Origin: a virus
Taxonomy: Duplodnaviria; Heunggongvirae; Uroviricota; Caudoviricetes
Strand: one strand, 5' to 3'
IMG/VR virus record: IMGVR_UViG_3300008262_000022
Length of the DNA: 44,008 nucleotides
Part shown: positions 19,171 to 30,813 of the stretch, piece by piece
How positions within the stretch are numbered: position 1 is the stretch's first letter
Layout of the letters: every line of letters begins with the position of its first letter
Program-made: the position numbers and the translations under genes
The notes under the pieces: generated by a model
Told to the model about the DNA's origin: nothing
The model's input: only the letters and a program-made list of their open reading frames with translations
Database searches by the model: none

Positions 19171-19590
19171 ATGAAAACAATAAAATTAAAACAACTTATC
19201 CGTAATGTAATTAACGAAGCTTTCTTTATAGGCGAAGACGATATAGATGAATACGATGTTGAAAATGAACAAGATATAAAAGAATTTGTTCAATTCATGC
19301 GTGAATATCAACAAGAACTAAACGAAGCAGATTGTGATTGCATGTTGGAAGCTAAATACCAAGGTCGCACAGTACCTTTAGGTAAACCAATGCGTGGTGA
19401 TAGTAAGAAGTTTAAAGTATATGTTAAAAATCCTAAAACGGGCAAAGTAGTTAAGGTTAACTTTGGCGCCAAAGGAATGAATATAAAAAAGAACAACCCA
19501 GTTAGACGTAAAGCATTTAGAGCTAGACATAACTGTGACAACCCAGGACCACGTACTAAAGCTAGATACTGGAGTTGTCGCAAATGGTAA
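19171..19590 (+). CDS. Basic putative DNA-binding internal protein
   Basis: 'LKQLIRNVINE' leader, acidic spacer, then 'VNFG...RRKAFRARHNC...KARYWSC..W'. Confidence 0.6.
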   Translation: MKTIKLKQLIRNVINEAFFIGEDDIDEYDVENEQDIKEFVQFMREYQQELNEADCDCMLEAKYQGRTVPLGKPMRGDSKKFKVYVKNPKTGKVVKVNFGAKGMNIKKNNPVRRKAFRARHNCDNPGPRTKARYWSCRKW

Positions 19591-19629
19591 TGTATTAATA
19601 TATGGACCCTGACAGTAAAAATAAAATTA

Positions 19630-19842
19630 ATGACCTGGAGAAAAAAGTTTTTAAGCAACCTAGCAACATTCTGCCTAATGGCGGCGATGTTTTTCAATCC
19701 TCTTGGATTCGACATATTATTCAAACTAGTAATGACGTTGACAGGTTCCTATTGGATTACGGATTTGCTTTTTTACCTAGCTGCGGGGTTATTTCTTGGA
19801 TTATATTTCTTATTGCGTTATAAAATTAATAAAACTAAATGA
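19630..19842 (+). CDS. Small membrane protein (holin candidate)
   Basis: 70 aa, two to three hydrophobic helices with basic N- and C-termini. Confidence 0.45.
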   Translation: MTWRKKFLSNLATFCLMAAMFFNPLGFDILFKLVMTLTGSYWITDLLFYLAAGLFLGLYFLLRYKINKTK

Positions 19843-23850: not shown

Positions 23851-23882
23851 TTTGGGTAGGTAAAAAATAAGTTATATATTTA
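23851..23882 (+). promoter_or_regulatory. Bacteroidota sigma70-type promoter
   Basis: TTTG (23851-23854), 20-nt spacer, TATATTTA (23875-23882). Confidence 0.55.
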
Positions 23883-24633: not shown

Positions 24634-24677
24634 TATTTATTGGCAAAGTAATTTTATTACCTTTATAAAAAAGTAAA

Positions 24678-25115
24678 ATGAACCGCACAACACTACGCAC
24701 ACTAATAAAAGAGGCTATTCGTAAAACTCTTAAAGAACAAGAAGATTTAACCCCTATAGACCCAGGACCTGGACAAGAGCCAGCAAATGTTCCTACTTCA
24801 GATGAAGCACCATCTGAAGCTGAAACTCCTGAAGCACCATCAGGAAATATCAGCAAAGAAGAAGCTAAACAGTTGGTTAAAGGTACTAAAGGTAAATTTT
24901 TTACTGTTACATTTATTAAAAAAGATGGAACAGAACGAGTAATGAATGCTCGTTTAGGTGTTAAAGCTTATCTTAAAGGCGGTGATTTACCATATAACCC
25001 AGATGAAAAAGGATTAATTCCTGTATATGATATGAAAAATGGTGGTTATAGAATGGTAAACGTTAATACCATTAAAAAATTAAAAATAGGTAATAACGAA
25101 TATAACGTACAATAA
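24678..25115 (+). CDS. Cargo-leader protein with a C-terminal SH3/WYL-like beta domain
   Basis: 'LRTLIKEAIRKTLKE' leader, Pro-rich linker, 'FFTVTFIKKDGTERVM...VYDM...YRMVN'; TATTTATT at 24634-24641. Confidence 0.55.
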   Translation: MNRTTLRTLIKEAIRKTLKEQEDLTPIDPGPGQEPANVPTSDEAPSEAETPEAPSGNISKEEAKQLVKGTKGKFFTVTFIKKDGTERVMNARLGVKAYLKGGDLPYNPDEKGLIPVYDMKNGGYRMVNVNTIKKLKIGNNEYNVQ

Positions 25116-25471
25116 TGGAGTTAGTAGGTATTTTAAAAGAAAATAAACAAATTTATTATTTAGAATTAATTCCTCTAGATAATAAAACTAAAGTTAAGGA
25201 AATAGAAAAACAAATATCTAAATTACAGGCTTTAGGAGCTAATATGAGTGCAATCGATATGAAAACTTTATATAAAAATATAAAGCGATTTTTTGTTGGG
25301 AAATATAAAGATGGTAGTGATATTCCTACACCATATACTGATAAAAGTGAATTATTTAACAACCAATATGATACTAAAGCTACAATATTTACTAAAGAAG
25401 AAGCAGAAAAACGCAAAGCCTTTATAGATAAGTATGTAAAAGATTGGATTGTAAATATAAAAACAGTATAA
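25115..25471 (+). CDS. Hypothetical protein with 'GILKE' leader
   Basis: 118-aa ORF, TAATG-coupled. Confidence 0.5.
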   Translation: MELVGILKENKQIYYLELIPLDNKTKVKEIEKQISKLQALGANMSAIDMKTLYKNIKRFFVGKYKDGSDIPTPYTDKSELFNNQYDTKATIFTKEEAEKRKAFIDKYVKDWIVNIKTV

Positions 25472-25477
25472 CATTTA

Positions 25478-25530
25478 GACAGATTCATAGCCTGTCGCTC
25501 GTAAGAGATAAAATAATATGGAAGCTGTGG
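25478..25530 (+). ncRNA. Candidate structured RNA (H-type pseudoknot with GNRA hairpin) overlapping a terminator
   Basis: P1 GACAG(25478-82)/CTGTC(25492-96); CTC-GTAA-GAG hairpin; the P1 loop can pair with TATGGA (25517-22) or GCTGTGG (25524-30). Confidence 0.5.
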
Positions 25531-25564
25531 CTCCGATCAAAAGATTGGGGCCACTCTTGTTTTG
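25527..25564 (+). terminator. Rho-independent terminator
   Basis: GTGGCTCCGATC-aaaa-GATTGGGGCCAC, a 12-bp stem with two G-U pairs, followed by TCTTGTTTTG. Confidence 0.7.
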
Positions 25565-25591
25565 AAAGTCAAAATAAAGATATTAAATTTA
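25561..25591 (+). promoter_or_regulatory. Bacteroidota sigma70-type promoter for the oxidoreductase N-half
   Basis: TTTG (25561-25564), 19-nt spacer, TAAATTTA (25584-25591). Confidence 0.55.
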
Positions 25592-25598
25592 TAAAATT

Positions 25599-26117
25599 AT
25601 GGATAAAAAAATAGTAATAGTAGGTAGTGGAGTAGCAGGTATTAGTGCTGCATTAAAATTAATAGATAATAACTACCCAGGAGAATTAATTACCATTATA
25701 GATAAAGGTAATGATCCTTATGTTCGTAAACCAGAAGAAGTAATGACAGGATTTGCAGGAGCTGGAGGATTCTCAGATGGTAAACTTACTTATCATACAT
25801 CAATTGGTGGTCAATTAAGTAAATATTGTGGTGAAGAAAAAGCTTATGATTTAATGGATCAATCTATTGAAATGTGGAAACGCTTCCATCCAGATCCATC
25901 TAAAATAATGTACTCAAATCCACAATCTGAACCGGATTTTATTAAACCTTATTTTGGTCTTCGTTTATTTCCTGTTTACCATATTGGTACAGATTATTTA
26001 CACGAAATAGGAAAACGTTGGTATGATTATTTAGTTGATAAAGGTGTTAAATTTGTGTGGGAGACTGAGGTAGAGGATATTGACTTTGAAACTGGGGAAA
26101 TAATATTAAAAGATTAA
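25599..26117 (+). CDS. FAD-dependent oxidoreductase (COG2509-like), N-terminal half of a split gene
   Basis: Rossmann 'IVIVGSGVAG', 'GFAGAGGFSDGKL', 'HIGTD'; ends after 'GVKFVWETEVEDID'. Confidence 0.8.
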   Translation: MDKKIVIVGSGVAGISAALKLIDNNYPGELITIIDKGNDPYVRKPEEVMTGFAGAGGFSDGKLTYHTSIGGQLSKYCGEEKAYDLMDQSIEMWKRFHPDPSKIMYSNPQSEPDFIKPYFGLRLFPVYHIGTDYLHEIGKRWYDYLVDKGVKFVWETEVEDIDFETGEIILKD

Positions 26118-26138: not shown

Positions 26139-26369
26139 ATGAAAAAATCTGAATTACAACAAATCATTAAAGAAGAAATACAAAAATCCCCTCAATATGT
26201 AGCCGACAAACTGTGGGATAAATTTAATGGAAATTTTGAAAAAATAGATAGATATATTGACGGTAAATTGTTAAAAAATATAAATAGATCTAAAATTTCT
26301 GTTGATAAAGTTGATAACATGGATAAATTTTGGAAAGAAGTATATAGATTAATATCTAATAAACTTTAA
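26139..26369 (+). CDS. Small cargo-leader protein inserted in the oxidoreductase
   Basis: 'MKKSELQQIIKEEI' leader; TATTTATA at 26118-26125. Confidence 0.6.
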   Translation: MKKSELQQIIKEEIQKSPQYVADKLWDKFNGNFEKIDRYIDGKLLKNINRSKISVDKVDNMDKFWKEVYRLISNKL

Positions 26370-26410: not shown

Positions 26411-26554
26411 ATGGGACGTATCAAAAAATATCAAACAGAAGATGAACGTATTCTCAAACAACGAGAATATAGTAAGAAATATTACTGGTCTAATAAAGAA
26501 AAAATCGATGAAAAACTTAAACAAAAATACCACGAAAAGAAAACAAAACAATAA
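26411..26554 (+). CDS. Unannotated 47-aa basic helical ORF (MGRIKKYQTEDERILKQREYSKKYYWSNKEKIDEKLKQKYHEKKTKQ)
   Basis: First ATG after the late-type motif; open to TAA at 26552-26554; overlaps the endonuclease 5' end in another frame. Confidence 0.6.
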   Translation: MGRIKKYQTEDERILKQREYSKKYYWSNKEKIDEKLKQKYHEKKTKQ

Positions 26555-27245
26555 TTTTATAGTTTATATTCATATACGACCTGATATAAATGAACCATTT
26601 TATGTTGGAAAAGGAGTACCTGGAAGAGAAATTAGAACATGTGGTAGAAATCAATACTGGCATAACATTATAAATAAAAATAATGGTGTGTTTGAACCTA
26701 AAATACTATTTGAAGGATTAACTGAAGAGGAAGCATTGTTAAAAGAAAGAGAAATAGAATTGGATTTAAAAAATAAAGGTTATATATTAGCTAATATAGC
26801 TGAATGTGGTGTCAAAGCTGGTACTACTGGAATGAAGCATTCTAAAGAATCTAAACATAAAATGAGTGAATATTGGAAACAATATTACAATGAAAATCCT
26901 AGCCCTAAAAAAGGTATTAAGATGAGTAAGGAAAGTAGTGAGAAGAAAAGTAAGTCTATGATGGGTAAAAAAGTTAAATTAGGTGTAAAAGAATCTGATG
27001 AAACTAGAAAAAAGAAAAGTATTGGAATAAAAAACAGAGATCCTAAATGGATAGAAAAAAGAAATAAATCTATGGGTGATAAACTTAAAGATTTAAACAT
27101 TTATACTTTTCAACATTTAGAAACTAAAGAAATTTTTAAAGGTACTAGAAAAGAATTTGAAAATAAATTTAATTTAAATGGTGGAAGACTTAGTCAATTA
27201 ATTAATAATAAAGTTTTAAAATATAAAAATTGGATAAAAATATGA
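26508..27245 (+). mobile_element. GIY-YIG homing endonuclease with NUMOD3-like repeats
   Basis: 'VYIHIRP...FYVGKG', 'LTEEEALLKEREI', repeats 'GMKHSKESKHKMS', 'GIKMSKESSEKKS', 'GVKESDETRKKKS'. Start uncertain (26442 or 26508). Confidence 0.8.
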
Positions 27246-28039
27246 GAAAAATAAAATTTGACACTTGTATAGTAGGTACAGGTAAAGCTGGAATAGACTT
27301 TTCAGCTAAGCTAGCTCAGAAATATAATTTACCTACTGAGCAAAAGTCGGTCCAAATAGGCTGTAGGTTCGAGGCACCACAAAAATACTTCCAGAAATTA
27401 ATTGATGTAAGTTACGATTTTAAACTATATCAAAAGTTTGACAATGTGTCGTTACGTTCATTCTGTACTAACAATAACGCGGCTTATGTAGCAGTAGAAG
27501 AAACGTATGGTGATATAACATATAATGGCCATGCTAAAAAAGGTGAAGAATTTCGCAATGACATGACTAACTTTGGCATCTTAATGGAAATTAAAGGTAT
27601 TGAAAATCCATTTGAATGGTCACGAGATGTTGTTAAAAAATGTAATATAGTAGATGGTCAAACAAAGGAAAAAATAGGAGGAATATATTATTCACCAAAT
27701 CAAACAAGACAACCATCTAATACCTCTGAGGGTGAAAGAGTTAAATCTCATCAAGCTCATGAACATGTATTACCTATAATAAGAGAAGCATTCGGTGGGT
27801 ATTTTGAATACATTGAAAACTTCATTGACCAAATGAATAAAGTATTCGAATTTGGTGATGATTGGGGTATGTATATTCCTGAAGTAAAATATCTATCTCC
27901 TGAACCATTAGTAAATTATAAAAACTTAGCATTAGTTGATTATCCTAACGTACACTTCGTAGGTGATGCTTTAAGTGCTCGTGGAATTACAGTATCAGGA
28001 GCGCATGGGATATATGTTGCTGAATATTTATTAGCATGA
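27242..28039 (+). CDS. FAD-dependent oxidoreductase (COG2509-like), C-terminal half of a split gene
   Basis: Begins 'MRKIKFDTCIVGTGKAG' with ATGA overlap on the endonuclease stop; 'QIGCRFE', 'RSFCTN', 'HFVGDALSARGI..SGAHG'. Confidence 0.8.
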   Translation: MRKIKFDTCIVGTGKAGIDFSAKLAQKYNLPTEQKSVQIGCRFEAPQKYFQKLIDVSYDFKLYQKFDNVSLRSFCTNNNAAYVAVEETYGDITYNGHAKKGEEFRNDMTNFGILMEIKGIENPFEWSRDVVKKCNIVDGQTKEKIGGIYYSPNQTRQPSNTSEGERVKSHQAHEHVLPIIREAFGGYFEYIENFIDQMNKVFEFGDDWGMYIPEVKYLSPEPLVNYKNLALVDYPNVHFVGDALSARGITVSGAHGIYVAEYLLA

Positions 28040-30286: not shown

Positions 30287-30813
30287 ATGAAAATAGGATT
30301 AGCAGGAACAGTTAGTGTTGGTAAATCAACACTTGTAAAAGCTCTAGCAGAATTAGAGCAGTTTAAAGATTATCATGTAGCTACAGAACGTAGTAAATAT
30401 TTGCGTGATCAAGGAATAGCATTAAATGATGATTCAACAACTCAACTAAAGGTCAATTTGTATTTGCAGCTGAACGTAGTTTAGAATTAATGCATGAAAA
30501 TTTATTAACTGACAGAACAATATATGATGTGTGTGCATTTACATTAAGTGCTAAATCAATTGGTTATAATGATAAGATTAAATTAATCGAATCATTTGTT
30601 ACTATAAGAAATGACTATGATTTAATAGTGTATGTATCACCTGAGGGTGTTGATATTGAAGATAACGGTGTTAGGACAACAGACGCTGAATATCGTATAA
30701 AAATAGATTTTGCTATTCGCGGATTATTAAAAGAATACCCACCAGTAAAATTAATAGAAGTTAAGGGTTCAACAGAAGAACGCATCAATTTAATACTTTC
30801 CCAAATAAACTAA
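30287..30813 (+). pseudogene. P-loop ATPase/kinase (NadR/AAA_28-like) frameshifted by a 5-bp duplication
   Basis: 'GTVSVGKST' in 30287..30484 and 'TDRT..DV.AF' in 30490..30813. Removing one CAACT of the tandem at 30438-30447 gives a continuous '...DDSTTKGQFVFAAERSLELMHE...'. Confidence 0.7.

Follow-up and report, generated by a model that had tools for sequence, protein, structure and literature searches.

A kissing-loop RNA that overlaps an intrinsic terminator before a flavoprotein gene of T4-like phages: a candidate riboswitch

The IMG/VR virus record IMGVR_UViG_3300008262_000022 is a 44,008-nucleotide (nt) stretch of DNA from a tailed phage (Caudoviricetes), hereafter the window, in which a compact RNA structure lies between the stop codon of one gene and the N-terminal half of a split gene for a flavin adenine dinucleotide (FAD) oxidoreductase. 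The question raised by this locus is what a structured RNA that runs into an intrinsic terminator does in front of such a gene. An earlier note had proposed a riboswitch-like pseudoknot in competition with the terminator, and its hairpin P1 with the loop, its GTAA hairpin, its downstream partner strand at 25524-25530 and its 12-base-pair (bp) terminator stem were all found where it had placed them (Table 1). From the comparison of 358 distinct RNA copies collected in all, it is almost certain that the RNA is predicted correctly as two hairpins, P1 and P3, whose loops kiss, and that this fold and the terminator are mutually exclusive.

The loop of P1, termed L1, consists of nine nt in the order A-U-six kissing nt-C, and the loop of P3, termed L3, of nine nt in the order A-G/U-six kissing nt-C; the two loops are pseudo-symmetric, and are joined by a 6-bp kissing helix between 25485-25490 and 25525-25530. 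The folding energy of the block beats that of shuffled sequences (z = -3.9, 0 of 200 shuffles), and the aptamer takes up about 65 nt. Some ten nucleotides are invariant in total, several of them outside Watson-Crick helices: the A before and the G after P1, the A, U and C of L1, and the A and C of L3 are invariant or nearly so, as are the central A-U and U-G kissing pairs. For instance, G25497, just 3' of P1, is conserved in 98% of the copies, and the single-stranded 5' tail shows an A at position -1 in 100% and a U at position -4 in 95%. The distance from the stop codon to P1 has a mode of 6 nt (54 of 149 copies), and that from P1 to P3 ranges across the family from 15 to 28 nt. The GTAA hairpin, P2, is not confirmed as a core feature: it is stable in just 47 of 292 relatives and is an optional start of the linker.

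Hairpin P3 was found by mutual information: A25523 and C25531 are both invariant, and the three bases preceding the former pair with the three following the latter. The hairpin stands among the top covariation signals. It forms with 2-4 bp in 355 of the 358 copies and with at least 3 bp in 82%, as against 18% after shuffling, and its innermost, closing pair occurs as GC (51), CG (21), AU (11) and UA (4). P1 occurs in 38 sequence types, with two-sided changes at all four pairs tested, and the kissing helix is 99.8% paired, with three of its pairs changed on both sides. For the three helices together, none of 500 shuffles reached the observed values, either for paired cells or for the score, and the signal collapsed in slid controls. 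An H-type pseudoknot without P3 was the first reading of the fold, and was given up for the kissing loop after the covariation of P3. Of the two alternative loop partners in the earlier note, TATGGA is present in just 31 of 358 copies and would form a duplex of -2.2 kcal/mol; it supplies, as TGGA, the 5' strand of P3, and is therefore not a loop partner. The other, a 7-bp pairing, holds for six pairs by covariation and fails for the seventh, C25491-G25524, where the G is a U in about 19% of the copies and the C stays fixed.

In order to avoid circularity, loop variants were fetched without specifying the partner strand, and one retrieval that fixed both strands was not counted alone as evidence of covariation. 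In these partner-blind searches, the loop change A7U was accompanied by the matching U-to-A change of the partner in 24 of 24 distinct family matches, C4U by a G-to-A change in 21 of 21, and C4U with a further U3C change by a matching partner in 4 of 4, while the standard loop had the standard partner in 100 of 101. A search on the two loops alone gave 83 distinct matches, among which P1 was present with at least 5 bp in 79, in many different sequences; the other four were chance matches. On a tree of the enzyme proteins, two kissing pairs each show co-change in all eight supported independent pairs (p = 0.008). Both P1 and the long-range pairing therefore covary among homologues, an outcome whose absence would have told against the earlier proposal, and the terminator always overlaps.

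The competition with the terminator follows from shared nucleotides. The 5' arm of the terminator contains the 3' strand of P3 together with part of L3 (four kissing nt in the window), so that the kiss and the terminator exclude each other. Among relatives, the whole 3' strand of P3 is taken by the terminator in 275 of 335 copies and two to six kissing pairs are displaced in 334 of 335, beginning from a toehold above P3 of 0-5 bp, usually 1-4 bp. The overlap is also seen in three-way changes of L1, L3 and the terminator arm, which read C-G-C in 273 copies, C-G-U in 41 and U-A-U in 20, with one exception; where the kissing C-G has changed to U-A, the nucleotide of the terminator arm is a U in 20 of 20. 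The energies are about +0.4 kcal/mol for P3, about -3.5 kcal/mol for the kiss and about -20 kcal/mol for the terminator (mean of -18.5 kcal/mol in relatives). The kiss and P3 are thus far weaker than the terminator, and a conserved kiss could not persist at equilibrium unaided; most simply, a fold that is conserved yet outmatched would exist only during transcription or when it is held by something.

Aquatic phages related to one another carry the RNA by the hundreds. At least 115 IMG/VR stretches match a 17-mer of P1 exactly, and metagenome copies were also among the matches listed for a 21-mer search, while the family descriptor has no match in 1.08 Mb of shuffled DNA. The phages that carry the RNA are T4-like and akin to Flavobacterium phages, with complete relatives of about 170 kb, and the capsid protein of the window shares 61% identity with that of Flavobacterium phage immuto_2-6A; the cultured relative Immutovirus has neither the RNA nor the enzyme. 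When loci were fetched by the enzyme protein alone, the RNA was present in 67 of 80, and the 13 others include six with less than 500 nt of upstream DNA and one with a degenerate remnant. A pattern scan of 185,579 genomes gave 14 matches, of which only three fit the model; these lie in bins labelled Microbacteriaceae, Gammaproteobacteria and Maribacter (L309, L310 and L316, in the labels given here to loci). Their flanks resemble phage DNA, and they are probably phage contigs placed in the wrong bins. Model searches of 300 genomes sampled from the phylum and family to which a Maribacter bin belongs, which divergent versions would escape, did not find the RNA, and it is apparently restricted to phages.

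The RNA lies outside the Rfam catalogue. As the earlier note had supposed in recognising no known family, the window has no match in Rfam 15 at the gathering threshold, and five relatives are also negative; the best hit, PyrG leader, reaches E = 2.7 and 20 bits against a threshold of 65, and covers the terminator part only. Literature searches by sequence and keywords gave no description, and an unnamed listing is possible among the 8,495 IMG/VR candidates of Fremin et al. 2023 (PMC10690425) or in Weinberg et al. 2017.

The neighbouring genes are fixed on one side only. An oxidoreductase gene lies within 4 kb downstream in 148 of 148 RNA-retrieved copies with enough flanking DNA, and is adjacent in 84, whereas the upstream genes are variable and fall into 60 clusters among 173 copies, the largest with 20. 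Among 198 copies, the downstream gene encodes the flavoprotein in 131, a Pyr_excise-type protein in 35 and an endonuclease-like protein in 14, and the genes inserted between the RNA and the oxidoreductase are mostly pyrimidine-dimer glycosylases or endonuclease-like. At locus L394, a near-identical RNA and promoter precede an oxidoreductase only 40% identical to that of the window; apparently the gene was replaced and the regulatory module before it kept. The stretch L394:2826-3001 holds a late-promoter motif and a 7-codon remnant of an open reading frame (ORF), followed by the RNA and the promoter. The RNA is single-copy in the genomes searched whole, and local duplicates occur at a few other loci. 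Whole or partial copies are duplicated around inserted gene cassettes at L211 (10177 and 11614), L070, L170, L171, L021, L359 and L309, and the two copies at L211 differ in sequence type, one standing upstream of a glycosylase-type gene and the other upstream of the oxidoreductase; the border marked by the RNA is an insertion hot spot.

Transcripts that contain the RNA likely arise mainly from the late-promoter motif ahead of the two preceding ORFs, the nearest one in the window, whose promoter function is predicted from its sequence; the same motif precedes many structural genes of the window. A putative early promoter of the Bacteroidota type before an exonuclease gene is a possible further source upstream, and no terminator-like sites were found on the + strand between it and position 25527. 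Across the family, the late motif stands within 40 nt of the RNA in 21 of 358 copies, most of those inspected having no gene in between. A promoter of the form TTTG-N19/20-TAnnTT overlaps or follows the terminator in 162 of 198 copies, where 3.4 would be expected from shuffles, with spacers of 19-21 nt only; from the Bacteroidota -33/-7 consensus, we take it to be the promoter of the oxidoreductase. As this early promoter lies after the terminator, the enzyme is probably made early in any case, and the RNA would gate transcripts from upstream, mostly late, promoters. The late motif itself has 24 sites on the + strand of the window (e.g., 1490, 4797, 10700, 18485, 22455, 34112 and 38439), and often ends just 3-4 nt before an ATG, which suggests nearly leaderless late mRNAs.

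That the element acts by regulated or tuned attenuation is regarded as very probable. The chances appear about even for the narrower reading, drawn from sequence comparison, that it is a ligand-gated, kinetically controlled transcription attenuator, namely a candidate ON riboswitch for a small molecule or ion. By such a mechanism, host RNA polymerase coming from upstream, chiefly late, promoters would make P1 and then P3, and the loops would kiss before the 3' arm of the terminator exists. The terminator would then nucleate 1-5 bp above P3 and invade P3 and the kiss by strand displacement, and transcription would end by default, unless a small molecule or ion at the invariant nucleotides held the kiss long enough for read-through. 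By read-through, the flavoprotein and the genes inserted before it, often pyrimidine-dimer glycosylases, would gain additional expression that is late and depends on the signal. A conserved structured domain that is exclusive with a terminator and fixed before one gene class is a general trait of transcriptional riboswitches, and is found here. The control of late read-through foreseen in the earlier note is in this respect supported by the covariation, the overlap and the constant link to the oxidoreductase; the model of two alternative loop partners is replaced by the kissing loop, and the riboswitch itself stays a candidate.

The ligand might, as a guess, be a nucleotide-, flavin- or redox-related metabolite. 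It can be put forward only tentatively that the RNA represents a riboswitch class found only in phages, in which a pseudo-symmetric kissing-loop aptamer for a metabolite of Bacteroidota cells without a known RNA sensor would license late transcription of a COG2509-type flavoenzyme. If this were true, the ligand would reveal what the widespread COG2509-type enzyme family does and would give a handle on COG2509/VP0956 flavoproteins, and phages would be seen to evolve RNA sensors of their own that override the early/late programme for one metabolic gene. The phage riboswitches reported so far belong to bacterial classes (PMC9004378), from which a phage-specific class in most of an abundant aquatic group would differ. 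The aptamer is short, at about 65 nt, and occurs in hundreds of natural variants beside natural alleles that lack it, so that the proposal is directly testable.

Several observations weigh against a ligand-gated switch. The oxidoreductase has its own promoter, and the switch would not be its sole control. Two complete genomes have the enzyme without the RNA, and aptamer-less alleles consist of terminator and early promoter only (L130:2900-2995, L187:2900-2998 and L137:1900-1960); in view of these cases, the RNA is an optional extra at a late/early border of a generic kind. Moreover, the RNA is confined to one phage group, so that its invariance may partly reflect limited divergence, and its variants are scattered on the enzyme protein tree, so that the number of independent changes may be overstated owing to recombination. 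At the same time, the energies given above are nearest-neighbour values that leave out the tertiary stabilisation of kissing loops by Mg2+.

The same two folds would also serve an attenuator gated by a protein, in which the kiss is stabilised by an RNA-binding protein of phage or host origin, which permits read-through at a set stage of infection. All of the structural evidence fits this equally; Rop stabilises kissing hairpins, ANTAR dimers bind two hairpins that overlap a terminator, the pseudo-symmetric loops are such as a dimer site might be, and the RNA is phage-restricted. However, no candidate protein gene is linked to the RNA, given the many clusters of upstream genes, and the loops of the phage RNA pair with each other, unlike ANTAR hairpins, which are not known to do so; a protein gate is held to be unlikely. 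Alternatively, the kiss might need no partner and slow the folding of the terminator by a fixed amount, or by one set by temperature, Mg2+, pH or polymerase speed. The variable overlap of the kiss (2-6 pairs) and the variable toehold resemble a tuned leak, and the invariant A and C of the loops could form pH-sensitive A-C pairs; nevertheless, such a dimmer is distinctly improbable, because a leak needs merely a weaker terminator, as at the aptamer-less loci, and the ten or so invariant nucleotides, several of them outside Watson-Crick helices, would be needless.

The small RNA that the earlier note had offered as its second option would be a late RNA of about 85 nt, either transcribed from a late promoter to the terminator or cut out of the upstream message. 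It would act in trans, for example as a decoy, or would protect the upstream message as an mRNA 3'-end element. The late-promoter motif close to some copies, the separate promoter of the downstream gene and the conserved 5' tail speak for it, but P3 and L3 would be sequestered in the terminated RNA by a hairpin of -18 to -20 kcal/mol, and the RNA would have to be trimmed or remodelled before the kiss could form. Since a completed terminator leaves no room for the kiss, this reading is disfavoured; action in trans would also not require one downstream gene at every locus, nor the retention of the RNA when that gene is replaced, and the option is accordingly seen as rather improbable. Very little weight is given to a self-cleaving ribozyme that would clip the upstream message from its terminator: the compact tertiary fold, the invariant nucleotides and the single-stranded 5' tail would suit one, but no Rfam ribozyme is matched, the topology is to our knowledge unlike that of HDV, pistol, twister, hatchet and hammerhead, and a ribozyme would explain neither the conserved terminator overlap nor the constant gene downstream.

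Other functions and folds were considered and rejected. A recoding signal after the upstream stop codon (a pseudoknot for stop read-through or frameshifting) has no conserved frame; in the window, the frame past that stop ends again ten codons on, inside P2, and the linker length and the distance to the stop vary. The 5' tail is three positions off the late motif and has no -33 element enriched upstream, which argues against a promoter, and its pairing with the linker gave no covariation signal. A structure on the minus strand folds less well (z = -2.3), and the G-U pairs work on the + strand only.

Table 1. Positions of the RNA parts, candidate promoters and oxidoreductase gene parts in the window
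Feature	Position	Strand	Basis or detail
Upstream stop codon and conserved single-stranded 5' tail	25469-25477	+	stop codon 25469-25471
Hairpin P1 and loop L1	25478-25496	+	5 bp, 25478-25482 with 25492-25496; L1 25483-25491
Optional hairpin P2	25498-25507	+	3 bp, GTAA loop, start of linker; minimum-free-energy fold
A-rich linker	25508-25518	+	15-28 nt from P1 to P3 across the family
Hairpin P3 and loop L3	25519-25535	+	stem 25519-25522 with 25532-25535; L3 25523-25531
Intrinsic terminator	25527-25563	+	12-bp stem 25527-25554; U-rich tail 25555-25563
Late-promoter motif before ORFs 24678-25115 (WYL_2) and 25115-25471	24634-24641	+	motif match, nearest one in window
Putative early promoter (Bacteroidota type) before exonuclease gene	23851-23880	+	TTTG-N20-TAnnTT match
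Putative early promoter of oxidoreductase	25561-25591	+	TTTG 25561-25564, 19-nt spacer, -7-like element 25584-25591
COG2509-like FAD oxidoreductase, N-half	25599-26117	+	Pfam Pyr_redox_2; PHROG dehydrogenase
Inserted 76-amino-acid (aa) ORF with own late-promoter motif	26139-26369		lies between the two oxidoreductase halves
Homing endonuclease	26442-27245		PHROG; likely N-terminus 26411-26554 in another frame
COG2509-like FAD oxidoreductase, C-half	27230-28039	+	split off by inserted ORF and homing endonuclease

The window is AT-rich, has almost all of its genes on the + strand, and encodes a terminase, a portal and a T4-like capsid protein. Its oxidoreductase gene, split as listed in Table 1, is intact in relatives such as L173, where it encodes 432 aa. 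The fold of an intact relative of this length resembles that of Vibrio VP0956 (PDB 3NLC, TM 0.67), a protein of unknown function, and the structure comparison did not reveal the substrate of the oxidoreductase. A 42%-identical homologue without the RNA (L393:699-7296) lies near genes for AdoMet decarboxylase, DUF5591 (a faint match), QueC, AAA_28 and DNA polymerase A, a neighbourhood that hints at a role of the enzyme in nucleotide or DNA-base modification. Next after the oxidoreductase there is usually a kinase-like AAA_28 gene, which the window (30287-30813) has as two ORFs of 65 and 107 aa and L173 as a single ORF of 176 aa; the split in the window is a frameshift or an assembly error. At 19590-19839, a gap between the listed ORFs of the window holds an apparent short hydrophobic ORF, below the 80-aa cut-off.

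Compared with known systems, the loops of the phage RNA share their layout with a structural analogue, the HIV-1 DIS-type kissing loop, in which nine-nt loops are arranged as 2 + 6 + 1 with six kissing pairs. In contrast to the latter, the phage RNA is intramolecular and non-palindromic, has A-U/G ... C flanks, and has its kiss coupled to a terminator, not to the dimerisation of a genome. The classes preQ1-I, SAM-II/V, NAD+-II, pistol, HDV and ToxI differ in topology or context, and none of them gave an Rfam match. Glutamine riboswitches are carried by T4-like aquatic phages, such as methylophage Melnitz, and riboswitches have been called rare in phages (PMC9004378); those riboswitches likewise sit in T4-like aquatic phages but belong to a bacterial class, whereas the kissing-loop RNA occurs in most enzyme-carrying phages of its group and no bacterial family was found for it.

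Among riboswitches that act on a terminator, the fluoride riboswitch (crcB, RF01734) has a proven mechanism of pseudoknot against terminator and shares with the phage RNA a short P1, an A-U loop start and a 6-bp pseudoknot with wobbles, whose 3' strand is the terminator base (PMC11077080). It differs in that the 3' pairing strand of the phage RNA sits in a hairpin loop of its own, that a C (97%) follows this strand instead of the U of the A40-U48 linchpin, and that neither crcB-type genes nor an RF01734 hit are present. The guanidine-IV riboswitch, also by a proven mechanism, sets a kissing loop or pseudoknot against an intrinsic terminator, with ON logic and a narrow cotranscriptional window (PMC11611296, PMC9788692). 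Guanidine-IV and its variant Gd4v resemble the phage RNA in that a kissing loop links two hairpins and is in competition with a terminator, but occur in gut bacteria rather than aquatic phages, and precede sugE, MATE, GNAT and transaminase genes (PMC9788692) rather than a COG2509-like flavoprotein. The phage RNA has no match in Rfam, which may not include this family, and is set apart from it by its genes. In the ZTP (pfl) riboswitch, the terminator 5' arm comprises a small, labile P3, nucleates above it and displaces both P3 and the pseudoknot, which is a proven mechanism (10.1101/521930). The phage RNA has the same geometry, with a labile small P3, a variable linker and the P3 loop in a pseudoknot; in ZTP, however, L3 pairs with J1/2 of P1-J1/2-P2 and the genes belong to folate and purine metabolism, whereas the partner in the phage RNA is the nine-nt terminal loop of a 5-6-bp hairpin and such genes do not lie downstream. 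With no Rfam family matched, the predicted kissing-loop RNA shares the architecture of the ZTP, guanidine-IV and fluoride ON riboswitches.
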